From: a virus | Reading direction: 5' to 3' (one strand) | Length of the DNA stretch: 64,000 nucleotides | Virus record (IMG/VR): IMGVR_UViG_3300033153_000868 | Coordinates: 50,220 to 114,219 of that record | Part shown: positions 24,245 to 42,446 of the stretch, piece by piece | Layout: each line of letters starts with the position of its first letter | Numbering within the stretch: position 1 is the first letter of the stretch | Position numbers and translations under genes: made by a program | The notes under the pieces: generated by a model | Seen by the model: only the letters and a program-made list of their open reading frames with translations | Told to the model about the DNA's origin: nothing | Databases searched by the model: none

Positions 24245-27208
24245 TTACATTCCCATCTTACCACTGTAAAATGGTACTGCCCACTTTGATAACTTTTTTA
24301 TTTCTTTTCCTTTTTGTGATCTAGTTATTGTATTCCTAGCTGCATCATATCCTACTGGTGCTCCTTGAGTGTTAAGTTCATTTTGACCATATGTTCTTTG
24401 AGTATTAGTAGAAGAACTTACAGGACCATATATTCTTTCCCACATGCTTTCTGTAACTTCCCTTTGATTACCCTTTTCATCTTTACCAACAAGTTCTTGC
24501 AGTCTTTGCCACTTTTCTATATTTGATTGAACTTGATCTCCTTGATTATCTTTCATTAATTTTTTGCCATTTGGACCAAATTCTACTATACCTGCTCTAG
24601 ATGGATTAACATTATAATAATCATACAGTTGATTCATATTATATGTATTAGCCATATTGGTAAGTCCTGCATTATATAACTCATTTGTTTTTGCAGTTTG
24701 CCAATTCTTAAAGTTATCGGCATTTTGCAATGCAGTAACTGTATCATCATATAGTTTTTTGGTTGTTGCATTATTTAACTGATCAACTTTCATGTCTAAC
24801 TGAGGCTGCATAGTTGCAACTTGATTCATAGTTCTGACATTGTTCTGATTAACTTGATTAATAGCTTTAGCATTAGCATCTAAAGTTTTACCTTGAATGT
24901 TACTACGTGCAATTGCCTGTGGACCATAAGCACCTAGTGCCTGCGCCATTGTATTTTGAGCAGCAAGATTAGCATTTACTCTACCAGTATAGTCATCTAA
25001 TACATAATCAATTTTTTGATCCTCTAATACTGGAGCAAATGGAAGATATAGATTATCTTTTATATTATTTTGTGCAATAAGGTTATTTATATCTTGTTGC
25101 CACCATTGTGGATCTACTTCTGGTTTAGGTTGTACTGCTGGTTTCTTTGTAATCTTTTCTGGATCATCTGGTAAATCCATAAACTTCTCATCTCTTGGTT
25201 GATAGTTCATATCAAAACCAGGAGCATTTACAGTATAACCACCTCTCTTACCATCAAATCTTCTTTTTTTCCATTCTTTATCTAGCTTACCATCTCCATC
25301 CTTATCATATGTAGCAGGATCATTTTTAAGTCTTTCTGCTAATACTTCATCTGTAAAGAAGTAAGGAATATATTGAACACCTTTTTTGTCAAAGTATTCT
25401 TTTCTTTTTTCTTCATATTTATTTTGAAATGTTCTCCAGTTTTTATCATAATCCGGATCTGACATTTTCATATTAAACTTAAAGTCAACCCCCTCTTCTT
25501 CTTTCATTGCATCAATGACTGCTTTATTTCTGTAATAAAAATCTTTTTCAGAATCCTCACTAGAAAAAACATTTGAACCATAGCCAAAATTATCTGTATT
25601 TACAGCTTGAACATCAGGTAATTGATTACCAGAATACTTACCACTTATAAAAGTTGCTATATCACCTACATTAGGATCCTCATTTAATTCTTGCTGAGTT
25701 CTTATATCTGGTGTATATGTATCTGCAAGAGCTCCTGAACCTGCTATTTTATCTTGATCAAATACTTGTACTTTAGTGCCTTCTTTCATGGTTCTACCAT
25801 CAACAGCTTCTCTTACAAAAGATATTTTGTTTTTACCATCTTTCTTTACTACAGTAGGAATATATCCATCTGCTATATATTGATCATATTGTTTAGCCTT
25901 TTCACTTCCTGCTGCATATGGATTTTTATTACCACCAGACTCTACAACAGTTTCTACTTGTTTGTCAGTAGCTCCTACTTGCTTATCAGTTGTTACAGCT
26001 TCTGCCTCAGTTTCTGTTACTGTCTCAGTTACATCTTCTGTAATTCTGTATTCTTCAGGTACTTGACCATTTTGAATTGCAGCAATAGCTTGTCTTCTCA
26101 ATTCTGATTTAGGAATAGGATCAGAGCCATCTTCTAAATACCAAGCTTTACCATCCCAAGTAGCATCTTTCATGTTCTTAGGATAACCAAGATTTTTTCT
26201 TTTATAATACTGTCTAGCAGTTTCACCTTTCTTTTGATAGCTTTCTAGTTCTTTACCTTCTCCTGCTTTAATTAAAAAGTCACCCAGCTCAGTACCAAAT
26301 TGAGCCATATTGCCAATCATAGCATTATTTTCCATAGCTAATCCTGGTTCACCTGCAGGTGGCATAAATGCATCCATTGGTGCAGGCATTCCTTGTTGTG
26401 GCATTTGTTGTTGAATATCTTGTTGTTGCATTTGTTGAGCCATCATTTCTTGCAACATCATTATTTGTTGCTGTTGCTCTAATGGTAATGATGCAAATGC
26501 TTTGGCTTCTGCTTCTTTTCTTGATATCTCTTCTACTTTAGCAGTAAACTCAATTGGGTCTTCGCCAATAGAAACCAAGTATGGATGAGATGCTAAAGGC
26601 ACCCCATCTGAAAAATCTTTTTTAGCTTCTTGTATAAAGGCAAGTTTAGATAAATCATTCATATTTTTTTTAAGCATAAGCTCTGCACTTGTAGCAGAAA
26701 TATTATCTGCATATTGTGAATCTAATTCTGCATAATAATCTTGCAACCCAAACTTTTTAGAAATTTTAGCTGGGGTTTTTCTACTTCCTCCTAATCCAAA
26801 CTCACTCATTTCATCTTTTGAAAGTTTAAGTTTTCTTGTATCAGAAAAAATAAAAGATTGTTCTGGCAAAAACATTGGTACACCACCACTACTATGTCTT
26901 GGTCCTGTTATATCATATAAACCAAATGTTCCATCATCATTTAAATCAGTTAATACTGTTTCTCCACCTTCTGCTTCTAAGTTAGCATCTTCTCTAGGTA
27001 CACTAGATAAACTATATCTAACAGATTCATCTTGTGAATTATTAAAGTTAGTGCTACCATAATATGCTTGTGGAGTTGTAACCAAACCATAATCAGCTTG
27101 ATCACCTGTTGTCATACCACCATCTCTCATAGACTTTGCATCTTCAACAACTTTTCCATTACGGATGCTGAAACCTTGCGGTAATTTGTTTATTTTAATT
27201 TTTGCCAT
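24245..27208 (-). CDS. Putative internal virion cargo protein
   Basis: 987 aa with ANLEAEGGETV...GPRHSSGGV, a motif I recognise from crAss-like cargo proteins. Has a Q/M-rich linker and an N/Q-rich coiled C-terminal region. No Cys. Confidence 0.65.
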   Translation of the reverse strand: MAKIKINKLPQGFSIRNGKVVEDAKSMRDGGMTTGDQADYGLVTTPQAYYGSTNFNNSQDESVRYSLSSVPREDANLEAEGGETVLTDLNDDGTFGLYDITGPRHSSGGVPMFLPEQSFIFSDTRKLKLSKDEMSEFGLGGSRKTPAKISKKFGLQDYYAELDSQYADNISATSAELMLKKNMNDLSKLAFIQEAKKDFSDGVPLASHPYLVSIGEDPIEFTAKVEEISRKEAEAKAFASLPLEQQQQIMMLQEMMAQQMQQQDIQQQMPQQGMPAPMDAFMPPAGEPGLAMENNAMIGNMAQFGTELGDFLIKAGEGKELESYQKKGETARQYYKRKNLGYPKNMKDATWDGKAWYLEDGSDPIPKSELRRQAIAAIQNGQVPEEYRITEDVTETVTETEAEAVTTDKQVGATDKQVETVVESGGNKNPYAAGSEKAKQYDQYIADGYIPTVVKKDGKNKISFVREAVDGRTMKEGTKVQVFDQDKIAGSGALADTYTPDIRTQQELNEDPNVGDIATFISGKYSGNQLPDVQAVNTDNFGYGSNVFSSEDSEKDFYYRNKAVIDAMKEEEGVDFKFNMKMSDPDYDKNWRTFQNKYEEKRKEYFDKKGVQYIPYFFTDEVLAERLKNDPATYDKDGDGKLDKEWKKRRFDGKRGGYTVNAPGFDMNYQPRDEKFMDLPDDPEKITKKPAVQPKPEVDPQWWQQDINNLIAQNNIKDNLYLPFAPVLEDQKIDYVLDDYTGRVNANLAAQNTMAQALGAYGPQAIARSNIQGKTLDANAKAINQVNQNNVRTMNQVATMQPQLDMKVDQLNNATTKKLYDDTVTALQNADNFKNWQTAKTNELYNAGLTNMANTYNMNQLYDYYNVNPSRAGIVEFGPNGKKLMKDNQGDQVQSNIEKWQRLQELVGKDEKGNQREVTESMWERIYGPVSSSTNTQRTYGQNELNTQGAPVGYDAARNTITRSQKGKEIKKLSKWAVPFYSGKMGM

Positions 27209-27210
27209 AA

Positions 27211-30012
27211 TTATAATTTTTCTATGTCAGCTCCAGCTGCAATTAGTTTTGCCAACATTCTTGAATCAACTTCTACAGTCTGCTCTCCTCCATTTTGTTT
27301 TTTTGATTTAATCAAATGAATGTAACCATTGTCATCATCATAATAATCAGCGGTCTTAAAATCATATGATCTACCATCTTCACTTGGATCTGAAGTATAA
27401 TAAGGAGCTTTATTTTTATAATTTACATTAACAGGTTGACCTGCATTATATGCTTCAGGATCAATTTGTGATGCTAAGTATTGTTGTAGTTTAAACTCAG
27501 GAAACATTCTAGCACCACTTAAGTTATTGCTATTACCTATAAACAGTGTATCATTTTCAGTAACTCCCATTTGAGACATAATATCTTTTATAGCAGTTTT
27601 ATCATTTTTGTTTTTATCTCTAAATAACTCTATATACTCTTGTAGATAATTATGATCATAGTTTTTAATTCTTTCTTTTCTTTCTTTTCTTGTTTCTCCA
27701 GCATCTTGAGCTTTAGCTAACTCTCTTTTAATAACTCTATCTCTATTTGCTAAGTATGCTTCTTCTCCTTTAGCTCCACCATATGCCATATTACTAAGTA
27801 TGTTATGCTGTGCTTCTGGAGGCAATGCTTTAAAGCCAGGATTGTTTACACCACCACCTTCTTTACTCATATATAATCCTGTTGTTCTATCACCCTCACT
27901 ACCCATTAGTCCGGTGTTTACATCAAAAGTCCCCCTCTTATTAAATGCATCAGTAGTAGTTCCATATAAATTATCTGCAACTACATCACCACGCATATCT
28001 GCATAAGCATTATTCCATTCTTTTTGCTGGTAAATATCATTAAAAATATCAGCTGTTTGAACTGCTGCATTAGATAAATCACCAAATAATCTACCACCTA
28101 TTGTATTTGGAAATCTTAGTAAGCTATTATTAAAATTACTAAGTAAAGCATTAGGACTTTTATCCTTTTTGGCTGTAGGAAGATTTATATCTCCAAATAA
28201 ATCTGCTGCTGTTCTTTGAGCAGGTTGACTATTTGTTTGATCTTCTGTTGGATTTGGATTAAAAGGATTATCAAACTGTTCTTCATATTCTGCATACAGC
28301 TGTTGAGCATTGGCACCACCTCTTGTAACAGGGTCTTGCACCACCCATTCCTTAAAGGTAAGCTTATCATTTGCTACCGGACCTCCAGCTGAACCTGCAT
28401 ACTGTTTAATAGGAAGCTCTGCTCCATACATAGCAAACATTTCTTGAAAGTCTGTAAGATAAGGAAGGCCTTTTTCAAACTTTGGGTCTAAAGGACCATC
28501 ATAGTCTTTTGGTATAAACATATCAAAATTCGGATCATTACCTTCAATAGCATCTTCACCAGGTCCTTGATTAAATTCAGGATCTAAATCTACTTCTTGT
28601 GGATCTTTCTTTTCAGTAGCAGGAAACCTACCTTCAGCAGACATTGGATCTACTTGATATTCAGTTGGTATTTCTTGTCCTTTCTTTTTTAATATAGATT
28701 CAATATATGCTTTTGTTTCTGCTGTTCCTGTTTGCCATTTCTTTAGCAGATCATCAGAGATTTTTTTTACTGCACTTGGAGCATTTACATCATCTAGTAT
28801 TCTATCTGCTTCTGTTTTTATAATATTTCCTAATGCATCTTTCTGTTGATCTAGTTCTGGATTTTCAATTTTAAATTGTTCAAACCATTTAGCTGCAGCA
28901 TTTTTATTTTCATCACTTAAATCAAATTCAAATTTATATTTAGTATCTGCTGCTTTTTGTAATTGATTAGATATTCTTCTTCCTTTCCAATCTCTAAAAC
29001 TGCCATCTTTTACACCATCACCATCTTCATCTTTACCGCTAAATAAATCTTTTCCTACTGAACTAATTGCATTAAGAGTTTTACCCAAATTTAAACCACT
29101 GCTTGTTTTAAATAAAGCAGGATTAAACATAAAAGGATCTGGATTTATATATCCATTGTCATTTTGATCTACATAATCTTTAATTACATTTTTATCTTGA
29201 TCAGTGACTTTTACATTATTACCAGAAATATCTATATTACTATTCTTTGCAGCATTTGCAAAAGAATTCATCATGTCTAAGTTATCTGTGCCAGCAGAGT
29301 TTGATGTTTCTTTTCCTTCTTGTGCTTTAGGTGCATCATGAGTATATCCGGCTTTCTTTAATCTAAGGTGAGCTTCATGATCCCTTGCTCTAATCTTTCT
29401 ATCACCTTTATACATAAAGTGTGGCTCAAATTCACCACCTTCTTCCTTCTTCCATCCAGCAGCATTCTTAGCAAAGTTTGCCATTTTTACTACTGATGGT
29501 GGATAATTATCCGTGTTACTCATAACTTTGTTATAAGCTTCAGATACTGACATACCTCTTGCTTTAGCCCATCTAGTAAACTTACCTTTATTTTCAGGTT
29601 TAATTTCTATACCAGATTTAGCTTGATCAATAGATGTAATATCCATATCCATAGCAGGAGCTTGTTCTTGCATTTCTTCTGCTCTTGCTAGTTGTTGAGG
29701 ATTATTTGTTATTTCTTGAGGGCTGGGTTCTTTTGGTTGTTGCATCCTTTGAACTTCTTCAAACAATTGAATGATTGCTTCCTCTTCATAACCAAGTTGC
29801 ATAAGTGCTTGACCTATAAGATTTTGATCTACTTCTTGTTGCATTAATCCCATTAATACTTCTTGAGGTTGTCTACCCTCATCAATAGATGTAGAAAATA
29901 TTTCAGTTATTTGCATAACTTGTGGATCAACTTGAGGCTGCTGTTGCATTCCAGGTTGACCAGGCATCATTGCACCTCCTTGTTGTTTTACACTTTTTTT
30001 GTTTAAATCCAC
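27211..30012 (-). CDS. Putative internal virion cargo protein built of short modules
   Basis: 933 aa, GTG start, Q/M-rich N-terminus. Contains an IKPENKGKFT...ANFAKNA module that I recognise from crAss-like virion proteins, and many xAQxGGE-like motifs. No Cys. Confidence 0.65.
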   Translation of the reverse strand: MDLNKKSVKQQGGAMMPGQPGMQQQPQVDPQVMQITEIFSTSIDEGRQPQEVLMGLMQQEVDQNLIGQALMQLGYEEEAIIQLFEEVQRMQQPKEPSPQEITNNPQQLARAEEMQEQAPAMDMDITSIDQAKSGIEIKPENKGKFTRWAKARGMSVSEAYNKVMSNTDNYPPSVVKMANFAKNAAGWKKEEGGEFEPHFMYKGDRKIRARDHEAHLRLKKAGYTHDAPKAQEGKETSNSAGTDNLDMMNSFANAAKNSNIDISGNNVKVTDQDKNVIKDYVDQNDNGYINPDPFMFNPALFKTSSGLNLGKTLNAISSVGKDLFSGKDEDGDGVKDGSFRDWKGRRISNQLQKAADTKYKFEFDLSDENKNAAAKWFEQFKIENPELDQQKDALGNIIKTEADRILDDVNAPSAVKKISDDLLKKWQTGTAETKAYIESILKKKGQEIPTEYQVDPMSAEGRFPATEKKDPQEVDLDPEFNQGPGEDAIEGNDPNFDMFIPKDYDGPLDPKFEKGLPYLTDFQEMFAMYGAELPIKQYAGSAGGPVANDKLTFKEWVVQDPVTRGGANAQQLYAEYEEQFDNPFNPNPTEDQTNSQPAQRTAADLFGDINLPTAKKDKSPNALLSNFNNSLLRFPNTIGGRLFGDLSNAAVQTADIFNDIYQQKEWNNAYADMRGDVVADNLYGTTTDAFNKRGTFDVNTGLMGSEGDRTTGLYMSKEGGGVNNPGFKALPPEAQHNILSNMAYGGAKGEEAYLANRDRVIKRELAKAQDAGETRKERKERIKNYDHNYLQEYIELFRDKNKNDKTAIKDIMSQMGVTENDTLFIGNSNNLSGARMFPEFKLQQYLASQIDPEAYNAGQPVNVNYKNKAPYYTSDPSEDGRSYDFKTADYYDDDNGYIHLIKSKKQNGGEQTVEVDSRMLAKLIAAGADIEKL

Positions 30013-30072
30013 GTTGATAATATTATATTATTAATATACAAATAATTAGGGAGATTCACTAATCTTTATGGT

Positions 30073-33000
30073 TTAAGCTTTATAAAGATGAGTCAAAATA
30101 TAATTTGGTGGAGACATGTTTCCTAACTCTTTTGCATCTTTATAATGTTTTCTATTTAATTTATCATATATACTTTTAGCTTTAGCTTCTTCATTAGTAC
30201 CATCATATATTCCATCCATATAATCTTTATACATCTGAAGCTTTTTCTTTTCTCCACCTATTTTATAATCTGGCATGTACTTACCCAATTGCTGAAATTT
30301 CAAATATTTAGCATTTTTCTTAACTCCTTCAGTATATGTCTTACCGTCATCTTTGCTTGAACCACCCCAATGTTTAGGAAGAGTATTAAACAAATCATTT
30401 CTATCTACACCTTCTCTATTGTTAGCTAAAAATGCTAATCTTAACACAGTAGCAATTGCTGCTTTCTCAGGATCTAACAAATCTTTATTAGATGTTATTC
30501 CAAATTTCTTTAAAATATTTATTTGTTTTTTATTTTCTGGTAAGTTTTTATCTTCTTTAGCTATATTTTCCCATCTAAGCTGAGTTAACCCAACACTATT
30601 ATAATCTTCTTGTGCACTTTTAGAATAAGTTGGTAAGTTAATATTTGATGATTGTGCTGCAATTGCTAATAAAGGAGAAACATTTGATAACTGATTAGTG
30701 GTATCTAATGTAAAACCTTCATATTTTTTAAACACATCAGGAGATGAAGTTACAGTAGGTAACAGATTAGTTGAACCTACTACTGGCAATTGACCTTTTT
30801 TATTTAGGTCAGCAACATATTTGTTGGCTCCTCTTAAAAGGTTACCTGATTTACTATGCGTGTCACCAAAATTAGATTCATTACCATAAATACCAAAAGC
30901 AATTCTAGCAATATCATTATATACATCACTAGGTATACCTGCTTCTTGCATTATTTGTTTCTTGTTATTTACTAAAGCATTTATAAATGGCTTTGTTGAA
31001 TTTTCTTGTTCTTCTTTATCTGATGTATCTGACGTAAAGAAATTACCAACAGATTTTAAACCTCCTGTTTCATTATACACATCTTCTTCAAAAGCCTGTT
31101 GATCAAACACTGGACGTATAGGTTGATAGTTTAATGTGTTTACAGTATAGTTAGATCCTTGTTGAGTTTGCTCACTACCTTTAGAGTCAATATAATTAGA
31201 TGCATATTTTTCTCTATTATCTTTAGACATTTTTAATACAGCTTGTCCATCAACCCATTGGAAATTATTACCTTCATCTTCTGGTAATATATATACTGCT
31301 GTACCTGCTGGCATTCCTAAATCATATAATGCTTGCAAATCACTACATTGACCATTTACACAGCCATTACTTGCTCTATTATTATCTATATTACCATCAT
31401 CAAATAAACCTTTTCTACCTTTTGTGGGTCCATGAATAGCTGTAGCTACATCTATATCAGTACCATCTGTATATAAATTAAATGAAGGAACACCTTTACC
31501 ACCATATTTATCAGGTGAATCAGCATAACTTTCTTTTATATAATACTTACCAGCACCTGTATTTTTATTACCGGCACTCCAATTAGGAATCCACTTACCA
31601 TTTCTTTTATCTTCATCTGTTATTTGTCCATCATTATTCAAATCCCACATTTTTGTTACAGTTAAAGCATCACCTTCATTAGCACCTGTAAGAACTTCAA
31701 AATCTAATACTGGTTTGCCACCCCTCCAAACTTCTAATCTTTTTGTTTTTTTGTTTACTATAACATAATGACCATTTGGATCATTAACCATTTGTGATTT
31801 TTTTATAATATCTTCATCAGATGAATCATTAATATTTCTTCTATCCTGATCCAACAGCTCAACATCTTGCCAAGTTTCTTCAATTTCATCTACTGGTTCA
31901 TATGAATCTTGAGGTATCCTTAGTTCTTGATTAACAAAAATTTCATTAATATTAGATATATCATTTTCTTGTGCTAACTTTCTTACTGTTGTACCATATT
32001 TAGTTGCTATTCTTCCAAGAGTATCACCAGACTTTACATCATAAAAAGCATATTTAGTTTTACTCTTTGGTAATTTTATTTCTTGATTTATTGAAATCTT
32101 ACTCGGATTAGCTATATCATTTAACTCAGCTATCTCATCTACAGTAGTTCCATATTTATCTGCTATTCTAGTTAAGTTATCTCCAGACTTTACAGTGTAT
32201 ATATTTAATTCTTCTTTTGGTTTTTCATTTTGTTTTTCTGGTTCACGTAAAGGGCCAACAAAAGAAGAGTTTAATTCTGGAAGTTCTTCAACATAATTAG
32301 ATGGCATCCATAATTGACTATAGTCATAACCTTCTTGCTCATTTTCTCTCACAGGTCCAGCAAATTGTTTTTCAGGAAGATCATCTTGATATTTATATAA
32401 TTGCTTATAGTAATCATATGCTTCATCAGTAGTTGTCTTTAGAAAATTTTCCTGTACATTAGGTCTGCCTTCTGTATTTTTATCAAACAAAATCATATCA
32501 ATATAATCTTGAGTTTCTTTAGGTAATCTAGAAACCCATTGAACATCATTATATATATCCAGACCTTCTTCTTTTAATTCATTTAGCAAATCTCTTGTAT
32601 TACCTCTACCCCAGTTATATGCTGCTAGTGTTTTAATCAATCTTACATCTTGATCTTGATTTTCCTTATTTATAAATGATGAGTTATACAATTCATTCAT
32701 AGACCATTCTTGGACATCATGATTTTGTTCAGGATCATATGGATCTATTTCTTTAACATTTTTTGCTTTCTTATAATCTGCTATAAGACTATCTCCTATT
32801 TGACCAAGACCCATATAACCTGCACTACTTTTAGCTTTTGGATTTAAGTTAGATTCAACAAAAGCTTGCTTATACAATAGATTAGGGTTAATACTATTTT
32901 TATTTTCTACCTTTTTATCAGAGTCTTTAGGGATATAGATTCTATCATAAAACTCATATGGTTTTATGGCTGCATTTGCTATACTGTTAAAATCATACTT

Positions 33001-36000
33001 ATCATATATAGAAAGATATTTCTGATCTTTTGCTTTGTCATAACCTACCTCAACTTGAAAATTTTGTAATGGATCAATATTCATAAATTGTTCTGGTGTT
33101 ACTTTACCATCAGAACCATCTTCAGTTTTACTCCAATAATCTTCTTTCATGTAACCCGCTAAGCCATCAACAGTTTCTTTATATCCTATAGGGAGATCTT
33201 TAAAGTCTGATATCATACTTTCTCTATCAAGTATATCATCTGATATTTTATAATATTGCACTCCTTCCTCTTTTGAATTGGTTGGTGAATATTCTGTTTG
33301 CTTTTGTATATATTTTTCTTTAGGATTAAGACCAAGCGCACGTGCCCATGCTTCTTCAGAAAAATCATAATCACCATCAGAATCAAACAAGGGTTTTGTT
33401 GGTTCTGTTATACCCAGTGCATTACCTATTGCACCAAATGCTTCTTTAGTAATGCTGCCAAAACCAGGATAACTTTCAGGTCTTACTTCTTGAAATATTT
33501 TAAATCTAGTTTCAAGATCAAGTTCTGGATTAAGTATGTCCTTAGTTTTTTTACCTAACCAATCATTAAAGCTATCTGCTTTTTCAGCAGCACCTTTTAA
33601 AACTGGTATTACTGCATCATCTAATGTATTACCTCCTCTTTGGTAGAGTTTATTAATTCTTTGCTGTGTATCTATTTGTTTGCTATTGGGTTTCCATTTT
33701 GATGGACCATAATAATCTATTATATCTTCATTGTCTACTCCGCTCATAGCAAGCTTAGCCTTTTCTTCAGAATCATATATTCCTATAGTTCCACCGGTAC
33801 TTATATCACGCACTATAATCCTTCCGTCACCTGTTTTTATAGATACTAATTGACTTTTAGATTTTTTTACAGGTTCTGAAAGTGGAGGCTTATCATTCAT
33901 GTCAAAATCAGACATCAGCTTTTGTAAAGGTTTTAACTCTGGCTTTTCTATAAATTGATGTCCAAGTTCATACCATGCACTTTTAATAGTGTCATTATTT
34001 TTAATAGATGTAAAACTATCAATTTTGTTATTTTCAGCATAATCTGGATAATATTTGTTTATCCATTGTCTAAATACACTTTCATCTACATCAGATGGTA
34101 AGTCTGATAAATTATATTTAATATCATGCGGTAATTTTAAAACAGGCATCTCAGGATATTGATCTGATAAATCAGCTGCTGGATCAAAGTATGGTATATG
34201 TTTTAAGTTACTTTTGTTGCTGACTCCAGGATTTGCACCTACTTTAGCTTTACCATACTTTCCTAATGTTTGTATTGCATTTTGCCAATCCGGATTATTC
34301 TCCTGCCAATTTTCTCTTTCTTTAACTGTATTAAAAGTTGTGTCTTTATATTGATTATACCAAACATCTTTATAAAGTTCTTTTGCTTTTTCTATATCTG
34401 CTATGCTTTGATTTCTTTTATTCAATTCTATCTGATAAGCCTTACGTGCTGCATCATTTTCTAATTGTTTTTCTCTTACTCTTGGGTCAAATATTGATTC
34501 ATATACATCATCCTCATTATATCTAATGTTTACATTTTCATCCGGTGTATAAAATCTATTTAGCACTTCAAGACCAGATTGAGCATACCGTAATTTATCT
34601 TTGCTGTCATCTGCAGATGAAATCTCATTTAATTGATTAAAAATCTCATCATTACTATATACATCCTGTAATTGCATTAATGGATTGTAACCATCTGACT
34701 CTCCTCTGTTTAACTCTGAAGTTCTATCAATTATTTGTTGAAATTTTTCTCTAGTTAATGGCTCAGTCATAGGATCATATATTCCTAGATCTTTTGCTGC
34801 TGACCTAATTGTATTTAATCTAGTTCTAGCTTCAGTAGGATCAGAAACATAATCTCCCCAGGGGCTTCTCTCTATTTCTATCTGTCCTTCTTTTACAGAC
34901 CCATCTCTATTAAAAGCTACTATGGGATTACCATCTGCATCATAGGTTCCATAGCTTGCTATATCAATATTATTTATTATAGGATTTCCATCATCATCAT
35001 ACCCCTCTATATTAACCCTTTCGTCTTCAAATCTTTTAATAGTTTTTTGAGGTATAAGTCTATCTGAATTAAGGTTTTTATATATCTGTATAGCCCTATC
35101 TTCAAGATCGTTTGTTTCTTGGCCAGTAATATAATTATATGCTTGATTTGCCAAAGCAACATAGTTTGGTAAAACTACACTGCTTGGTCTAGTACTTAGT
35201 GAAGCATTTGCTAAAGCAATTTTATCTCCAATGCTTAAGTTATCTTTATATCTTTTTAATGTATCTTTTCCAACTCTATCTCCACTATGGCCTACTTCAT
35301 GTTCAAAAGTGTTTTCATAAACATGCCCTTCATGATCAGTATGTGATGGTTTAAAAAATTCAAGTTCACCATTCTTACTCCAAGATGTTGCACCTACACC
35401 TTCATCTTCGTGTGTATTAGGATTTACTATTATAGGTACGTTTTGTAAATTACCTATTCTACTATTAGTTATAAATTCAGCATCATCATTTGGACCAACT
35501 TCATTTGCTAATATTTTTTTATACATGGGTGAATCTAACCATTGTCTTTGAAATGAATTATCAACACTTTCTTGATTAGGTACAACTCCTTTAATATCAT
35601 TTACTTCACCCCTTAACTGAAATTTAGGTTTCCAAGAACCTTCTCCAAACTTTATAGCAGCTTCTTTATCTGCTCCAAAGTCTATAAGCTCACCTCTTCT
35701 TTTAGCTTCTTCATATGCTTCTTTCCAAGGTTTATTAGACATATCAACCCAAGTACCATCCGGATCTTGGAATAATGTTGGAAATGAAAACCAGTTCTTT
35801 CCATCTAAAGTTTCAGTAGCCATAAGGTGTGTTGACTCACTACCATCAGGATTTTTTCTAGCACCTTGTCTTTTAGGTACTTCAATACCATTTTGAGCCA
35901 TAGGCGTTTCCATTACCATATCACCTGGAAATTGATATTCATTTTCAGGCATCATCATTTGTGAATTACCAAGGTTATCTACACCCATAATAGGAAAGTC

Positions 36001-36159
36001 TACATCTTTCATGCTTATGTTTCCTGACGGAATGAAATTAACCGGATTGGTTTTATCTGGGCTATCATTTCTATACCCATCTACAGATATATATTGTGTT
36101 ATATCTATTAAGAACTCATTTGGTCCTCCTGGTAATCCTATGCTCTTTCTTTTTCCCAT
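30073..36159 (-). CDS. Multidomain virion peptidoglycan-modifying polyprotein: zincin, SLT lytic transglycosylase, 2x LysM, YkuD L,D-transpeptidase, second lysozyme-like domain
   Basis: 2028 aa. HEVGH (35287-35301). VESNLNPKAKSSAGYMGLGQ...AAYNWGRG (~32600-32860). Two YxVKSGDxLxxIAxKYGTTV LysM repeats (~31915-32200). IVNK..KRL...AIHG...ASNGCVN (~31350-31770). GNESNFG...GLTQL...LLDPEKAAIAT (~30450-30900). Confidence 0.85.
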   Translation of the reverse strand: MGKRKSIGLPGGPNEFLIDITQYISVDGYRNDSPDKTNPVNFIPSGNISMKDVDFPIMGVDNLGNSQMMMPENEYQFPGDMVMETPMAQNGIEVPKRQGARKNPDGSESTHLMATETLDGKNWFSFPTLFQDPDGTWVDMSNKPWKEAYEEAKRRGELIDFGADKEAAIKFGEGSWKPKFQLRGEVNDIKGVVPNQESVDNSFQRQWLDSPMYKKILANEVGPNDDAEFITNSRIGNLQNVPIIVNPNTHEDEGVGATSWSKNGELEFFKPSHTDHEGHVYENTFEHEVGHSGDRVGKDTLKRYKDNLSIGDKIALANASLSTRPSSVVLPNYVALANQAYNYITGQETNDLEDRAIQIYKNLNSDRLIPQKTIKRFEDERVNIEGYDDDGNPIINNIDIASYGTYDADGNPIVAFNRDGSVKEGQIEIERSPWGDYVSDPTEARTRLNTIRSAAKDLGIYDPMTEPLTREKFQQIIDRTSELNRGESDGYNPLMQLQDVYSNDEIFNQLNEISSADDSKDKLRYAQSGLEVLNRFYTPDENVNIRYNEDDVYESIFDPRVREKQLENDAARKAYQIELNKRNQSIADIEKAKELYKDVWYNQYKDTTFNTVKERENWQENNPDWQNAIQTLGKYGKAKVGANPGVSNKSNLKHIPYFDPAADLSDQYPEMPVLKLPHDIKYNLSDLPSDVDESVFRQWINKYYPDYAENNKIDSFTSIKNNDTIKSAWYELGHQFIEKPELKPLQKLMSDFDMNDKPPLSEPVKKSKSQLVSIKTGDGRIIVRDISTGGTIGIYDSEEKAKLAMSGVDNEDIIDYYGPSKWKPNSKQIDTQQRINKLYQRGGNTLDDAVIPVLKGAAEKADSFNDWLGKKTKDILNPELDLETRFKIFQEVRPESYPGFGSITKEAFGAIGNALGITEPTKPLFDSDGDYDFSEEAWARALGLNPKEKYIQKQTEYSPTNSKEEGVQYYKISDDILDRESMISDFKDLPIGYKETVDGLAGYMKEDYWSKTEDGSDGKVTPEQFMNIDPLQNFQVEVGYDKAKDQKYLSIYDKYDFNSIANAAIKPYEFYDRIYIPKDSDKKVENKNSINPNLLYKQAFVESNLNPKAKSSAGYMGLGQIGDSLIADYKKAKNVKEIDPYDPEQNHDVQEWSMNELYNSSFINKENQDQDVRLIKTLAAYNWGRGNTRDLLNELKEEGLDIYNDVQWVSRLPKETQDYIDMILFDKNTEGRPNVQENFLKTTTDEAYDYYKQLYKYQDDLPEKQFAGPVRENEQEGYDYSQLWMPSNYVEELPELNSSFVGPLREPEKQNEKPKEELNIYTVKSGDNLTRIADKYGTTVDEIAELNDIANPSKISINQEIKLPKSKTKYAFYDVKSGDTLGRIATKYGTTVRKLAQENDISNINEIFVNQELRIPQDSYEPVDEIEETWQDVELLDQDRRNINDSSDEDIIKKSQMVNDPNGHYVIVNKKTKRLEVWRGGKPVLDFEVLTGANEGDALTVTKMWDLNNDGQITDEDKRNGKWIPNWSAGNKNTGAGKYYIKESYADSPDKYGGKGVPSFNLYTDGTDIDVATAIHGPTKGRKGLFDDGNIDNNRASNGCVNGQCSDLQALYDLGMPAGTAVYILPEDEGNNFQWVDGQAVLKMSKDNREKYASNYIDSKGSEQTQQGSNYTVNTLNYQPIRPVFDQQAFEEDVYNETGGLKSVGNFFTSDTSDKEEQENSTKPFINALVNNKKQIMQEAGIPSDVYNDIARIAFGIYGNESNFGDTHSKSGNLLRGANKYVADLNKKGQLPVVGSTNLLPTVTSSPDVFKKYEGFTLDTTNQLSNVSPLLAIAAQSSNINLPTYSKSAQEDYNSVGLTQLRWENIAKEDKNLPENKKQINILKKFGITSNKDLLDPEKAAIATVLRLAFLANNREGVDRNDLFNTLPKHWGGSSKDDGKTYTEGVKKNAKYLKFQQLGKYMPDYKIGGEKKKLQMYKDYMDGIYDGTNEEAKAKSIYDKLNRKHYKDAKELGNMSPPNYILTHLYKA

Positions 36160-39100
36160 TATCTTTGTGATAGTAAAAGTTTAGTATTATTAAGTCTAAG
36201 CAGCATTTTTCTGTTGCCTGATACATTCCTACGTAAAATAACATTATTAGAGTAGTGTCTAAACTTCTTACGTTCCGTTTGACTTTTACCGTAATTAATG
36301 TTAGTTTGATTTAAAGGTCTAATATATCCATTACATGATGTGTCAAATATTGGTTGTTCTGCATTTGTAAACTCACCTCTATCATTAGTCACATCCCAGA
36401 ATTGATTAAATCTAAATTTATGTTCTACTTTAGAAACTAGTATTTGTATACCATTAAATCCAATAGAAGGAAAATCTAAATTAGTCCAAGGGCTGTTAAC
36501 CGGTTGTGGATTTAGTAATAGTAAACCTGATGTTTGATCATTATTATAAATAATAGAAGCATCAAAGTTAAAATCTAAATCTTCCCATTTATCTCCACCA
36601 CACATGTTGTATTGTGGATCTCCTTTATATACATAAGTTTCTAATTGATATTCAAAACTTCTTATGGTATTAACCGCTTGTCCAGTATTAGATATCAAAT
36701 CTATTTCCCATGGGTAGTCTTCACCATAATAATTTGCAAAAGAGTCACATCTTACATTGTGTCTCCAAAAACCACCCACTTTATAATTAGGCTGTAAAGA
36801 ATCATAATAAAAATAGTTACACTGCTTAGGGTTTGATTGAACAAAATCTGGATTTCCAATCTGATAAAGTAAAGGTGGTGTATCTGGACATTCACCTGTC
36901 TCAGTTAAAACAGAACCCGGTACAGTAGAAGGTGGACATTCACATGTAACTTTCCTACATATCGGTCTTTCATTTTCTAGATCACTACATGTTCCACTAG
37001 CCTGATCATATACATTTCCATTTGATGCATCTGGATAAACTAATGTATATCCTGTTGGACATTCACAAACAAAATCACTACCACATATACTTGATGTTAT
37101 TTCTTGAGCAACAACATCCCAATTAGAAATAGGATAATTTGCATTTATATTAGATTGAATCCCATATATATAAGCACTAGTTGTTGATCCAGCTGTACCA
37201 CTAGTTATAGTAATATTTTGACCATATTGACAAACTATATTGTTTAAAGCTGCACTTTGAGGTTGACCGGGTCCTCCTGGATAAGGTGAATTAACTCCAC
37301 AAAATACAGTATACATAAATTGAAAATTAGGAGCAGCATTACTTACTGTTTGAATTGTTGGAGATTGCAAATTACATTGAGGACCTGGGTTATTACCAGT
37401 ATCTGTAACAGTAATAACAATTCTTCTATAGCTTGGATCATTTTGTCTTGCTGGATAATTTGCTGCTAAACTTGATGATCCCGTTTGTTGAGCTAAACTA
37501 ATTGCCTGGTTCATACCTGCAGCTGTTGCAGTGTTACCACCATACCAATTATTTATGTACCAAGTTTGTACATTAGCAGAACTAACATTATCTGACATTG
37601 AAACAGGGCTAATAAATGCTCCATTTCCAGTTGTCCAACTTCTTTGTTGATTATTACCAGACCAACTTGTAAAACCAATTTGCATAGAACCTCCGTTTAA
37701 TGCATTTTGTATTTCTGGTTGATCAACAAAAGACATCACCCATTGTAACTGTGCAAAAGCTCTAGTCCCATTGTTTTGTGGGTTACCCGTACTACCAGAA
37801 GTATCCATTGCTACTACAATATCAATAAGACATGCTTGAGGACCTCCCGATATAATTGAGTCACGGTTATCTACAATAACTTCTGCAAGTTCTGTTGTAT
37901 TAATTCCTATTTCACATAAACCTGTACTAGGATTAAAATTATAACCCGGAGGACATTGCGGAACAGTTGTCTCAACAGTCTTTGTAGTAAAGAAGTGATT
38001 TATACTTGGTAAAGCTAACTCAGGATGCCAATCATGAAAAGATATCCATGCTTTAGATTTTGGGTCATAACTAATAGTCCATGAACAATCATCAAAATAT
38101 ATTGGATCACCAATATCAATACTTACTGGCACTCTTGCCTCACCTCTTATCTCTATTGGTCTAACTGGTCTATCAACAAATGTTGCTTGACCAATATAAT
38201 CAGGTTTTAATTGATAATCTTTTTTCATAAAGTAGACTACATCATCTACTGAATCATACATTACTTGACATCCTACTCCTGCTACAGGATTATCTGTCCA
38301 TTGTGTATTTTCTGAACTTGGAAATTGTTTTATAAATCTAGAAGGTAAATATTTAGCAAACCACCATTTCATTCCGTTATTAGATATAGGATCTAAACCT
38401 TTACCTCCATACTGAAATATTTTACCTTGTTGTTGAGATATAAAGAATAATCCAAGTGGTGTATTAATAACACCTCTTAAACTCTCACATGAACCATATT
38501 CATTTGATATGTCTGCATTAGCTACATTTTGAAACGGTTGACTAAATAAACCTCCATCACCTATAGTAAGCTTTGTATCTAATTGAGTTTTCAGTGTATC
38601 AAGACCCTGAAACATTTGTGGAGATAAGTATGGGAAAAATACTAATGCACCACTTTTGTTTATAGGTTTAATTACACTTACTTCATTTTTAAAATCTTTG
38701 TAATTGTTATTTAAAAATACTCTCCAATAATCTCTTTTTGATTCTTCTTGCGCTTGTAATGAATAAATTAATCTTTTTGGATAACTAACAAAACAATTTG
38801 CTGCAACATAGGGATCATAATCTCTAGGTTGAATTTGACCAAAAGATGACATTTGAGTAGGGAATCTACTTGGACTTAATGATTCATCATACTTGTAAAA
38901 ATTATCATCTTTTTCTATTCTTGCATGAAAGAGCTCATTTAAATCATTATAATCATATACATTATAGATTCTTTTTTTAGGTTCATCTTCCCAATCTCTT
39001 TGATCTAAATTTACTTCTGATTCAACATAAAAATCTAAGATTCCATTTACATGAGAATAAATATATGCAAATGCCATAGACAATGCAGGATTAGGATCAC

Positions 39101-42100
39101 TACCATTATTAAATATACTACCCCAAGAGGTGTTTGTTGAATTACTTGTTCTATCTAAATAAAATAAATCATTTGGCATCAATGCTGTAGCAGCATTTGA
39201 ACTACCTAATCCAAGAGTAACAAACTTTTGTGCTAAAGGTGTTAAATCAAATCTTTGTGAGTTTAACCAGTATCTTGGATATGGTATATTTACATATAAT
39301 GAATAATCAAAAGTATAACCATCAGGTTGACCTAATAAAAATCTTGTAAAAATAGGCATTATGGTTTTTTCAGTATATCTACCTATAAATGTGTCTCCAC
39401 TAAAAATTGGATCACTAGTATACATATATTGATTTGGTAATGTTGAATCTAACAATTGAATGCAAGATCTCATTGGTATTTGTTTTATACCATCTAGTTG
39501 ACCATACTGATTATCAAAATTAAATTTAAGAGCACCATAGTATGCAGATATATTACTTTTTCTTGCTTGTTTATATTTTTGAAAATATGAGTTACTATGT
39601 GGTGCAGGGTTTGAGTTTTGATATACTCCAGCTGAGCTTAATGATACATCTAATGATCCACCTATAGTATATCTTGATTTATCTTTTACATCAGGATCAG
39701 TAAGACTTTTTTCTAAACTTACAGCTACTGTAGAAGGTCTAAATAAATTATTAATTTTATAGTTACCATTATCAAATGTCTGAAATGATTGTCCAATATA
39801 GTTAGAGTCTGAATTTTTAATTCTCCATAAACCATTTGTTTGCTTATTAAAATTACTAAAGAACCCAAATGAATTGTGTTTTAAGACAAAACTATTTGAT
39901 GACTGCATGTTATATATTAGCTCTAAAAACTCATTACCTCCAGCTGCTATATTAGCTTTAGAAGTTTGAGCTGACATCCATATTTTTAAAAATATAGGTA
40001 TTGATGAAAAGTTGTTATCTGATGTCCATGCTATTTCTTCACTACCACCACGCATACCTGGCAAATTACCTATAGCTTGTGATAAACCCATCTGAATTTT
40101 TTCAGTAGCATAATTAGCAGCACCACCCACCCATAAGTCTGCTACACCAGTAGCTGAATCTAATAAAGCTTCAAGAAGTACTGATATAACTGATTGACCA
40201 GTATTAGCAGCAACATTTGCTAAAGAATATGCTGCTTGTGCAAAACCTGGTTGATTACCAATACCAGCTAATCCTCCAAAGGATCCTGACTGTGATGTCA
40301 TATTACCAGCAGCACCAACCCTTCTAACATTTTTAGTACCCCTTACTTGTCTTATTGCATAACCTAATCCTATAACTCCAGATATTATAGCTGCACCATT
40401 TCTTAATAATTTAAATTGAGGATGATCCTCGGATGGTTGAAATGTTCCACTTGCACTACCTGATAACTGACCGTATATTTTAGTTTCATATGCATTCAAA
40501 AAAGGTTTAGTAAACATAAGCTCTGGTGAAGAAAAAGTAAAAACTTTTCTTGAATATCCACTTGGCTCACCATTAATATCTGGTTCATCTCCTAATGCTT
40601 TATAATCATCTAATGATTCACCAAATGAATGAACACCGTCAGTTCTATTTAGTATATTATTTCCGCCTTTATGGAAATATACATCTGGTCTTAAATCATT
40701 ATATGGATAATTAGGATATAAACCTTGTACATCTCCACCAATTAAATTTTCTGCATTTGGTACAGTATACTTACGCATGTTTCTAAATAAACCTTTTCCT
40801 AAAATAGATTTTGCACCTAATCTAGATCCACGTAGTATTTCATAACCAACTACATTTTCTATGTAAGATCCATCATTATATTTAGGTCTCCCAATATTGC
40901 TAAACTCAACCCCTAGTATATTTATTTCGTCTCCATTTGAGCTTGTTAAATGCAATGGAGAAGTATTACCTCCTATTGATTCATCAGGCATTTTATGATG
41001 CCTTATTGGTTTACCACATAAGTCACCCCATATATCTGGTCTATTTGATGGATAAAGTTCTGTTGATTCCCAATACCCCATTTCACCTCTACCAGTAATT
41101 TTAGTTTCATCAGGTAAAGCGGTTATTGCAGTAGAAGTAATTGAAGCTGTATTGTATACTTTAAAAAGAGGATCTCCAGTTGGGTTTAGTACATTATTAC
41201 CATTTATAATTTCGTTCTCCATTGTCCCATTATACATTTCAGGTGCTCTACCTGGTATATGATATGATGAAGATCTTTCTCCTGTGTTATATATCCATCT
41301 TATAAAGAATGCATATTGTTCATCACGCAATAACCCTGTTCTATTACCGCCTTTAGAATAATATGTAGATGGTACAGAATTAATTACCCAATTTGTTTTT
41401 ATTTCATTTGCAATAGGTTGATAATTAAAATCAAATTGTTCTGTTGGTCCTTGTCTTATTAACCAATCATTAACCACAAACATAGATTCAGACTTTTCAT
41501 AAGCTGGACTTCTAAGAGGTATCAATTTTAAATCTATAGCTGATAATGACTCGTCTATAAAGTCAATGTTTATTGTGCTTACTTGAGTACTATATAAACC
41601 AATTCTTTTTGCTGAGGTTTGCCCTTGATTTCTTCTTAATATAACTAACTCAAAATAATCATAGTCTAAATCTAAATTAGAAAAATTTATGTCCAATGAT
41701 CCTCCAGTTCCTTCATGATTCCATAGTGTCTGAATATTAGATATACCTATATAATCAGTTACTCTTTGTTCATTTTCTGTATAGCCTACAAAAACTTGAT
41801 AAGCACCATTAGCCAACATTCCGCCATCAATAGACTTTTCTAAAGTAATGCAGGGTGTATCTAAAAGAGGTGCTAACCTTATTTGCTCACAGTCTAATGA
41901 TTTTGGTTCAATAATTTCATATTCTACACAGTCAGAACCATCTATATCTGGACCAGATATTTGAATTTTTTTCCAAGGTATATCATCTATATTTAGAGCT
42001 CTTGATGGATTGTTTGCATCATCCCAATATACTTCCCATGTACAATCAAAATTTTCTTTTGCTGCACCAACAATTAAATGCTTTTTACTAAAGTTTAAAC

Positions 42101-42446
42101 AAGGATCATTAACTAATGTAGTATACTTACATTCGCTGTCATCAAATCTACCTATTTCAGAACTAACGTTATCTGTAGAAAATACAACCCATTCATCACC
42201 ATATCTATGTATAGCACCTATAACAGTATAAGGTATGACACCACATGATAAATTTGAAGGCTCATTACCAATCATTCCTAGATCACCATCTTCAGAATTA
42301 TTAGCTGCATTTCTTGCATGCCACCATGCTTGTTGTCCTTCAAATGAAGGAGCAACATCTTTGTTCATCCCTTTAGTAAACGTATTTATATTTACTGATG
42401 ATGAACCAGAACTTTGTGGTTGAGATGGATTTTTCTTTTTAGCCAT
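36159..42446 (-). CDS. Tail stabilization / muzzle-like protein (crAss-like Tstab) with an inserted vWA domain
   Basis: 2095 aa. N-terminal FTKGMNKD...NA.N and C-terminal WTISYDPKSKAWISFHDWHP are typical of this family. It follows the ring genes. vWA MIDAS motif DIVVAMDTSGST (~37790-37830). The stop overlaps the next start (TAATG). Confidence 0.8.
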   Translation of the reverse strand: MAKKKNPSQPQSSGSSSVNINTFTKGMNKDVAPSFEGQQAWWHARNAANNSEDGDLGMIGNEPSNLSCGVIPYTVIGAIHRYGDEWVVFSTDNVSSEIGRFDDSECKYTTLVNDPCLNFSKKHLIVGAAKENFDCTWEVYWDDANNPSRALNIDDIPWKKIQISGPDIDGSDCVEYEIIEPKSLDCEQIRLAPLLDTPCITLEKSIDGGMLANGAYQVFVGYTENEQRVTDYIGISNIQTLWNHEGTGGSLDINFSNLDLDYDYFELVILRRNQGQTSAKRIGLYSTQVSTINIDFIDESLSAIDLKLIPLRSPAYEKSESMFVVNDWLIRQGPTEQFDFNYQPIANEIKTNWVINSVPSTYYSKGGNRTGLLRDEQYAFFIRWIYNTGERSSSYHIPGRAPEMYNGTMENEIINGNNVLNPTGDPLFKVYNTASITSTAITALPDETKITGRGEMGYWESTELYPSNRPDIWGDLCGKPIRHHKMPDESIGGNTSPLHLTSSNGDEINILGVEFSNIGRPKYNDGSYIENVVGYEILRGSRLGAKSILGKGLFRNMRKYTVPNAENLIGGDVQGLYPNYPYNDLRPDVYFHKGGNNILNRTDGVHSFGESLDDYKALGDEPDINGEPSGYSRKVFTFSSPELMFTKPFLNAYETKIYGQLSGSASGTFQPSEDHPQFKLLRNGAAIISGVIGLGYAIRQVRGTKNVRRVGAAGNMTSQSGSFGGLAGIGNQPGFAQAAYSLANVAANTGQSVISVLLEALLDSATGVADLWVGGAANYATEKIQMGLSQAIGNLPGMRGGSEEIAWTSDNNFSSIPIFLKIWMSAQTSKANIAAGGNEFLELIYNMQSSNSFVLKHNSFGFFSNFNKQTNGLWRIKNSDSNYIGQSFQTFDNGNYKINNLFRPSTVAVSLEKSLTDPDVKDKSRYTIGGSLDVSLSSAGVYQNSNPAPHSNSYFQKYKQARKSNISAYYGALKFNFDNQYGQLDGIKQIPMRSCIQLLDSTLPNQYMYTSDPIFSGDTFIGRYTEKTIMPIFTRFLLGQPDGYTFDYSLYVNIPYPRYWLNSQRFDLTPLAQKFVTLGLGSSNAATALMPNDLFYLDRTSNSTNTSWGSIFNNGSDPNPALSMAFAYIYSHVNGILDFYVESEVNLDQRDWEDEPKKRIYNVYDYNDLNELFHARIEKDDNFYKYDESLSPSRFPTQMSSFGQIQPRDYDPYVAANCFVSYPKRLIYSLQAQEESKRDYWRVFLNNNYKDFKNEVSVIKPINKSGALVFFPYLSPQMFQGLDTLKTQLDTKLTIGDGGLFSQPFQNVANADISNEYGSCESLRGVINTPLGLFFISQQQGKIFQYGGKGLDPISNNGMKWWFAKYLPSRFIKQFPSSENTQWTDNPVAGVGCQVMYDSVDDVVYFMKKDYQLKPDYIGQATFVDRPVRPIEIRGEARVPVSIDIGDPIYFDDCSWTISYDPKSKAWISFHDWHPELALPSINHFFTTKTVETTVPQCPPGYNFNPSTGLCEIGINTTELAEVIVDNRDSIISGGPQACLIDIVVAMDTSGSTGNPQNNGTRAFAQLQWVMSFVDQPEIQNALNGGSMQIGFTSWSGNNQQRSWTTGNGAFISPVSMSDNVSSANVQTWYINNWYGGNTATAAGMNQAISLAQQTGSSSLAANYPARQNDPSYRRIVITVTDTGNNPGPQCNLQSPTIQTVSNAAPNFQFMYTVFCGVNSPYPGGPGQPQSAALNNIVCQYGQNITITSGTAGSTTSAYIYGIQSNINANYPISNWDVVAQEITSSICGSDFVCECPTGYTLVYPDASNGNVYDQASGTCSDLENERPICRKVTCECPPSTVPGSVLTETGECPDTPPLLYQIGNPDFVQSNPKQCNYFYYDSLQPNYKVGGFWRHNVRCDSFANYYGEDYPWEIDLISNTGQAVNTIRSFEYQLETYVYKGDPQYNMCGGDKWEDLDFNFDASIIYNNDQTSGLLLLNPQPVNSPWTNLDFPSIGFNGIQILVSKVEHKFRFNQFWDVTNDRGEFTNAEQPIFDTSCNGYIRPLNQTNINYGKSQTERKKFRHYSNNVILRRNVSGNRKMLLRLNNTKLLLSQR

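Follow-up and report, generated by a model that had tools for sequence, protein, structure and literature searches.

The 64,000 nucleotides analysed here (the window) are the right-hand 64 kb, positions 50,220 to 114,219, of IMG/VR record IMGVR_UViG_3300033153_000868, a complete phage genome of 114,219 bp with direct terminal repeats and a G+C content of ∼32%. The source is a marine, crAss-related phage. Its large genes all lie on the minus strand and encode, in this order, proteins of 2095, 2028, 933, 987, 1152, 4607 and 1925 amino acids (aa). Three adjacent genes concern us here, those of a modular, cell-wall-attacking protein of 2028 aa (30073..36159; minus strand, as for every gene, module and motif copy located in this cluster below), a 933-aa protein built of mini-modules (27211..30012) and a 987-aa protein (24245..27208). 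These proteins are chains of small swappable modules linked by one short conserved peptide (Ala-Gln-x-Gly-Gly-Glu). The gene upstream of them (36159..42446) encodes a 2095-aa virion protein that has weak but colinear similarity to the stabilization (muzzle) protein of Crassvirales (E value 1e-4), matches virion structural PHROGs, and resembles large structural proteins of the Cellulophaga phages phi4:1 and phi17:2, of Flavobacterium FPSV phages and of one crAss-like phage. The order 2095, 2028, 933, 987, 1152 and then 4607 aa, the last with an HEAFH sequence, is the order seen in crAss loci. Because of the neighbouring 2095- and 4607-aa genes, the three genes can be said to fill the slot held in PhicrAss001 by the cargo genes gp45 and gp46, from the muzzle to the virion RNA polymerase, and their products are probably packed into the particle and injected as cargo. 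An earlier note on this DNA had already taken them for ejected cargo, and both this gene position and a module in common with cargo protein C1 (gp45) of PhicrAss001 support the idea.

The 2028-aa protein contains an SLT domain (a phrog_342 match), two LysM domains, a YkuD L,D-transpeptidase domain and a module with an HEVGH sequence. Pfam finds SLT, the two LysM and YkuD together in this one polypeptide, that is, two or more unrelated effector domains, as in polyvalent proteins. An N-terminal module (residues 1-86) and a C-terminal one (1971-2028) are present in all orthologues. Lytic virion enzymes do not usually have a YkuD domain such as the one found here (window 31287-31770, residues 1464-1624) beside SLT and two LysM domains. 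The 987-aa protein consists of a conserved N-terminal domain, a Gln/Met-rich tract, three tandem motif copies, a variable middle and a conserved C-terminal part. Low-complexity tracts rich in Gln, Met and Pro (MQQQPQ..., QQQQIMMLQEMMAQQMQQQ; window 29893-29970 and 26330-26500) occur in the 933- and 987-aa proteins and are kept in relatives.

The earlier note had described about 21 copies of a degenerate heptapeptide in the three proteins; all 21 were recovered, spanning window 24302-35901 on the minus strand. For each copy we asked where homology breaks, or which residues are kept, among orthologues from 15 syntenic IMG/VR loci. The BLAST segments of the 2028-aa orthologues break at all six copies of that protein: MAQNGIE (residue 87, 35881..35901), with breakpoints at 91-95 in seven orthologues; KFQLRGE (residue 179, 35605..35625), with a breakpoint at 181-184; YAQSGLE (residue 525, 34567..34587), at 529; LYQRGGN (residue 838, 33628..33648), at 841; EKQFAGP (residue 1263, 32353..32373), at 1258 in orthologue L006; and DYKIGGE (residue 1964, 30250..30270), at 1964-1966. 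The 933-aa protein begins with VKQQGGA (residue 8, 29971..29991), whose Gly-Gly is found in 11 of 11 aligned orthologues. QAKSGIE (residue 130, 29605..29625) stands directly before, and KKEEGGE (residue 188, 29431..29451) directly after, a three-helix module, the former in 90 family representatives, and copies at the latter bracket insertions in L006 and L013. KAQEGKE follows (residue 229, 29308..29328; Gly in 10 of 10). Two motif-like sequences in the middle of the protein are less well kept: FAMYGAE (residue 526, 28417..28437) is limited to close relatives, and IKQYAGS (residue 535, 28390..28410) shows weak conservation, with K[KRQ][YF]GG nearby in relatives. The remaining copies close successive modules, MSKEGGG (residue 715, 27850..27870) a widespread one that we call the G module, NMAYGGA (residue 741, 27772..27792) an NPGF cassette of ∼25 aa and KAQDAGE (residue 767, 27694..27714) a mobile AYLANR cassette; after KKQNGGE (residue 904, 27283..27303), with an invariant Gly-Gly, comes the C-terminal tail. 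In the 987-aa protein, the motif-like SMRDGGM (residue 26, 27113..27133) has its Gly-Gly in 11 of 11 orthologues. The copies MAQFGTE (residue 301, 26288..26308) and KAGEGKE (residue 314, 26249..26269) are followed by the motif-like SYQKKGE (residue 323, 26222..26242), just downstream of which, at breakpoint 334, a module swap starts, and the motif-like RSQKGKE (residue 963, 24302..24322) precedes the conserved C-terminal tail.

At ∼12 of 15 sites in the 933- and 987-aa proteins, Gly at either motif position is retained in nearly all aligned orthologues. G908 and G909 are two of only nine invariant columns in the 933-aa alignment, and G12, G13, A131, G134, G192 and E194 are nearly invariant in that family. 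The copies at residues 526 and 767 of the 933-aa protein and at 323 of the 987-aa protein are kept in close relatives only, and that at 933-aa residue 535 is poorly conserved. Around Gly-Gly, the 933-aa family prefers M/Y/K/F at -3, Q/K/E/A at -2, and E followed by I/V after the pair; no comparable preferences flank Gly-Gly in the rest of this phage's proteome. The codons differ between copies, which have at most a few bases in common. A DNA-level repeat or microhomology was rejected as the cause for this reason, and the different codons show the motif to be under selection at the protein level.

The earlier note had expected modules to be gained or lost at the motif, and homology breakpoints among the orthologues do coincide with its sites. 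Lengths range from 409 to 2061 aa for orthologues of the 2028-aa protein and from 521 to 1009 aa for those of the 933-aa protein, that of the 987-aa protein being stable. In a permutation test, the 2028-aa protein had a breakpoint at 5 of its 6 motif sites where 0.53 were expected (P<5e-5), and the 933-aa protein at 5 of 10 (P=0.02). Extra modules in relatives start after one motif copy and end in a copy of their own: in L002 an insert of 675 aa lies between AQLG and YQEGG, and the inserts of L006 and L013 follow KKEEGG. Junctions in relatives read PMAQxGxE, PKAQTGN, YKQGGE, FKEGGS or RYGGS. Two orthologues of the 933-aa protein (L007:549-3569 and L008:10001-13027) carry an extra Cys/His module (GYGCTSYGCG ... 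HTMIF) that resembles a CHAP/NlpC-P60 peptidase cassette, and in another (L014:9995-12779) the protein is split over two overlapping open reading frames of 443 and 492 aa, by gene fission or a frameshift.

Within the genome itself, the core of the motif is far above chance in the three proteins only, both against shuffled controls and against the other proteins. In composition-preserving shuffles of the three proteins, the strict form x[AKYFS][QKE]xGGE was seen 3 times against 0.10 expected, [AKYFS][QKE]xGxE 10 times against 1.3, and AQxGxE 4 times against 0.08; G.E alone and GG alone were not enriched. The other 24 proteins of the window are at chance level, with no AQxGxE and 11 of the loose form against 10.6 expected. 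These statistics alone are weak, because the patterns were chosen after the data had been seen and because the motif does not come out on top when four-letter patterns are scanned without bias across the whole proteome, where the collagen-like fibre and Thr-rich repeats dominate the outcome. It is for this reason that we use orthologues and breakpoints as independent evidence. The 996-aa tail fibre (window 49798-52788), with its long collagen-like G-x-x repeats, dominates all proteome repeat statistics. A matrix refined by expectation maximization extended the consensus to [LMI]-P-[MK]-A-Q-x-G-G-E-[TIV] and gave 16 matches in the 114-kb genome, where shuffles gave 2.4. The three cargo proteins account for 12 of the 16; the same scan found no credible copy in the 4607-, 1925-, 1152- and 2095-aa proteins. 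One motif-like copy stands alone outside the cargo genes: LDYKQYGGPKKVKK, with a score of 11.4, closes a 66-aa protein encoded 5,061 to 4,861 bases ahead of the window start (genome 45158-45358).

The same peptide recurs in a wider family. When 1.84 billion representatives were searched with a profile of the 933-aa family, 1965 proteins matched at E<=1e-3. The three-helix mini-module of the family (residues 137-187, 29452..29604) is found as a cassette at many positions in many proteins, Crassvirales cargo proteins included; among the top 150 representatives it occurs in 90, at positions from residue 8 to beyond 1100, with essentially constant flanks (A[KQ]SGIE or xGGIH before, W-[KN]K-x-x-GG-(E) after). 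It also occurs in members of the 2028-aa family, immediately after their first motif copy, and because the mini-module crosses into that family the three genes can be said to share one cassette pool. A second cassette, a beta hairpin plus helix of the PHxMY type (residues 195-228, 29329..29430), is optional and mobile. Cassette order permutes in the family (A-B-C-I-D-E..., A-B-E-G-D-K, H-H-C, C-C), with the leader, a helical bundle, the G module and the C-terminal tail holding fixed places. This tail (residues 911-933, 27214..27282; VDSxMLAKLIAAGADIExL) is nearly invariant in the form GGE-TxxVDSxMLAKLIAAGADIExL and is present in 102 of 150 family representatives whatever module precedes it; it is a likely candidate for an anchor or address element. 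In an all-against-all BLAST of 152 related proteins, 25.7% of 5330 internal ends of high-scoring segment pairs (HSPs) fell <=5 aa from a motif, as against 7.3% for random positions, with a peak at offsets 0 to +4. Together with the orthologues, these proteins bear out the swappable effector cassettes proposed in the earlier note: our comparisons show the motif to mark the places where cassettes are inserted, deleted, permuted and passed among the three neighbouring genes. Distant relatives have motif copies in tandem, 7-10 aa apart, and in some relatives (cr127_1 gp46, P0134) the gene starts exactly at a motif. Several relatives (P0036, P0043, P0053) have a cassette FPDLTGDGxVTQADILKG after the three-helix module that resembles a dockerin or EF-hand calcium loop. 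The motif as a general feature of the wider clade was rejected: the virion proteins of Cellulophaga phage phi4:1 gave one weak match in 18 proteins, and the Crassvirales form of the motif is looser and was missed by the matrix, which had been trained on the present family. The syntenic block of phi4:1 is virion-borne by tandem mass spectrometry, but its proteins lack the motif.

Structure prediction places the motif between folded units. The AlphaFold model of the full 933-aa protein was poor (mean predicted local distance difference test score, pLDDT, 38.8), with confident parts at residues 30-92 and 143-184 only. A model of residues 120-240 from a 42-sequence alignment contained the three-helix module (144-186, pLDDT 81-94) and the hairpin-plus-helix module (198-220, pLDDT 86-89), and its stretches at pLDDT<50 (120-133, 187-193 and 232-237) are the three motif copies that flank these two mini-domains. 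The models show the peptide, outside confident domains as the earlier note had expected, in what are predicted to be exposed, probably disordered stretches. A Foldseek search with the 121-residue model found no fold match (best E 1.3). The further claim, that recognisable domains are free of copies, is borne out by the 2028-aa protein as far as its Pfam domains go; in the block 841-1963 of this protein, however, several domain boundaries have no motif.

The clearest link to a phage of known structure is local. Residues 114-195 of the 933-aa protein align with residues 355-437 of PhicrAss001 gp45 (35% identity, E 3e-8) over the three-helix module, with motif copies at both ends, so that AKSGIEIKPENKGKF is paired with AKDGGDIKIKEKNKGKF and GWKKEEGGEF with GWLNTQGGDF. 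Tblastn matches fall in the same gene slot of cr128_1, cr108_1, cr127_1 and Rudgehvirus jaberico. The homology to gp45 amounts to this single shared module, and no homology is demonstrable outside it. For the 987-aa protein, homology to gp45 could not be demonstrated: the top hhalign match between the two families (107-155 against 464-513) lay in the expected region, within the portal-binding segment 425-552 of gp45, but had a probability of 0.11 and an E of 0.52. The profiles A1 and A2 had no match among PDB sequences. Gp45 is Cargo protein 1 in five PDB entries, 7QOG, 7QOI, 7QOJ, 7QOL and 8CKB (PMC10172136). Its residues 214-245 line the tail barrel and 425-552 bind the portal wing, twelve chains sitting on twelve portal subunits, and one chain has been proposed to bridge through the portal (PMC10172136). 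In its sequence, residue 214 follows AYGG (208-210), and the resolved stretch 425-552 includes AFGG, TQGG and NEGG. Cleavage of gp45 is not mentioned in that paper; PhicrAss001 virions give gel bands that include ∼58, 85-100, 150 and 270 kDa, for which the text has no assignments and which lie near the full-length masses of gp46, gp45, gp49 and gp47/gp50 (masses from PMC10172136). The proteins described here resemble gp45 in that their genes are flanked by those of the muzzle/stabilization protein and of the virion RNA polymerase, and in a beads-on-a-string build, the structured pieces of gp45 starting at aromatic-x-Gly-Gly sites. They differ from it in having three genes for the cargo, including that of a 2028-aa array of cell-wall enzymes, and in that the motif is tighter (P-x-A-Q-x-G-G-E).

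We tentatively favour, at slightly less than an even chance, the view that the motif joins the modules of thread-like ejection proteins, is left uncut, and is also the seam at which they recombine. In each cargo protein the N- and C-terminal modules are fixed and the cassettes strung between them vary, and every cassette ends in, or follows, a hydrophobic/Pro-x-Ala-Gln-x-Gly-Gly-Glu-hydrophobic sequence. According to this proposal, the motif, as the joint between small modules that fold independently, would stay uncleaved in the virion and may act as a flexible turn or hinge; the modules would dock separately on inner virion surfaces, and would unfold and refold singly as the chain threads through portal and tail, the arrangement that has been put forward for cargo protein C1 of PhicrAss001, a protein extending across tail barrel and capsid. 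The motif would be a tolerated recombination seam because only junctions within it spare both neighbouring modules. Several points speak against this proposal. The recurrence of Pro at -5, Ala-Gln, Gly-Gly, Glu and flanking hydrophobic residues at non-homologous positions suggests that something reads the peptide, and passive linkers are rarely so specific. The case for non-cleavage depends on a distant relative whose motif is looser, and on the text of a paper rather than on inspected coordinates. The families scored with the matrix are also those used to train it, the HSP ends of the 152-protein comparison are non-independent events, and a low pLDDT is no proof of disorder.

The earlier note had offered the motif as a processing site. 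If so, polyproteins would be cut after Gly-Gly or Glu, at head maturation or after ejection, by a phage zincin or a host enzyme, and the cassettes would be released. A specific peptide in exposed linkers at nearly all module boundaries fits this, as do cassettes that end in QxGG in the manner of ubiquitin-type or adenain-type substrates, and genes that in certain relatives start at the motif itself. The sites of phiKZ-type head proteases are S/A/G-x-Glu, with which Glu after Gly-x agrees. However, searches of the complete genome (PF03420, PF04586, PF02902, PF03412) found no C48, C39, S77 or S78 peptidase, and T4-type, HK97-type, Ulp1-type and C39 enzymes were rejected as the cognate protease on these grounds. 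A double-glycine leader peptide, an N-terminal stretch of 15-30 aa that ends in Gly-Gly and is the substrate of C39, was likewise rejected: the 933-aa protein does have Gly-Gly at 12-13, but the genome lacks a C39 domain and most copies are internal. There remain three HExxH sequences in the genome. The HEVGH of the 2028-aa protein (35287..35301, minus strand) belongs to an optional zincin-like module with no Pfam peptidase match; an HExxH module occurs in 7 of 11 distinct orthologues and is missing from the other 4 (L002, L003, L006 and L009/10), the motif being kept in all 11. HEAFH (14296..14310, minus strand) marks a candidate polyvalent-protein metallopeptidase in the 4607-aa protein, which has no motif copy. 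These two are the candidate zincins that the earlier note had named. The third HExxH, the metallopeptidase-like HELLHIAFGH, occurs in a 364-aa early-region protein whose gene lies 20,502 to 19,408 bases ahead of the window start (genome 29717-30811). Processing by zincins has been suggested for polyvalent proteins, with no cleavage site or linker motif defined, and the N4 virion RNA polymerase, with the same type of zincin, is packaged unprocessed (PMC5512222). Our literature search found nothing on cargo processing in Crassvirales. Cuts at tandem copies 7-10 aa apart would free nothing, and gp45 is resolved from 425 to 552 across three sites; these two points and the way the zincins are distributed speak against simple cleavage, and we regard a protease site as somewhat unlikely. 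A bolder variant, which seems to us rather unlikely, is an address code read after ejection by a dedicated phage or host protease; crAss-related phages would then deliver programmable polyproteins and free their cassettes (wall enzymes, small helical and hairpin modules) in a fixed sequence, either in the periplasm or in the cytoplasm. If true, such a code would also account for the trade in cassettes among the cargo genes of Crassvirales and their marine relatives.

The peptide may instead be bound rather than cut, as a short linear motif that a loading chaperone, or a site repeated within the particle (portal wing, tail-barrel rings, scaffold), would recognize, with many copies providing avidity and cargo order. 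Its high specificity in a disordered context and its multiple and tandem copies would suit this, such copies stand at the start of the piece of gp45 that binds the portal, with twelve chains for twelve portal subunits, and the layout hydrophobic-xx-turn-xx-hydrophobic could fold into a hairpin and so extend a beta sheet. No binding partner was found, however, and since the packaged giants of 4607, 1925 and 1152 aa lack the motif, it cannot be a general loading signal; as a tag of all packaged giants it was rejected, the 2095-aa protein also having no credible copy. The invariant terminal modules of the cargo proteins are better candidates for the loading address than a repeated motif, which tells against the capsid-loading tag suggested in the earlier note, and a docking role is in our view distinctly unlikely. 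Most improbable is that the motif is a product of chance and composition, a loose pattern picked by eye in proteins rich in Gly, Gln, Lys and Glu. The pattern is indeed very degenerate and was set post hoc, and the null results for G.E, for GG and in the unbiased scan are what chance would give, but chance would not give sites that are kept in orthologues and fall on breakpoints, nor one cassette flanked in the same way in 90 diverse proteins. We reject chance for the core copies; it still applies to a few of the weak copies (residues 526 and 535 of the 933-aa protein).

The three proteins can be compared with several known systems. Like the polyvalent proteins of Iyer et al. 2017 (PMC5512222), they unite many unrelated effector domains in one virion-delivered polypeptide, with extensive domain shuffling and HExxH modules; unlike in those, where autoproteolytic release is proposed with no defined site, the joint is defined here and the link to zincins is contradicted by their distribution. 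As in the internal proteins of T7 (gp14-gp16), P22 (gp7/gp16/gp20) and N4, which are ejected ahead of the DNA, one of the set carries an SLT lytic transglycosylase. We know of no repeated junction peptide or cassette shuffling described for the ejection proteins of T7, P22 or N4. Gly-Gly directs polyprotein processing by the adenovirus protease and by pS273R of African swine fever virus (ASFV), and the sites of the head proteases T4 gp21 and phiKZ gp175 end in Glu. The motif resembles these sites as a short Gly-Gly or Gly-x-Glu sequence at boundaries of packaged proteins, but no clan CE, C39 or T4/HK97-type protease was detected here.

CrAss-like phages, which are related to abundant marine phages, are more common in the human gut than any others, and cargo proteins are the least understood part of their virions. 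The motif is not described in PMC10172136 or PMC5512222, and the pattern seems to be undescribed so far. The joint peptide provides a rule for splitting large, unannotatable cargo proteins into modules for annotation and structure prediction. It also offers an explanation of how cargo diversifies, by exchange of cassettes at one seam, even between adjacent genes. Finally, whether and where packaged polyvalent proteins are processed becomes directly testable through one peptide.

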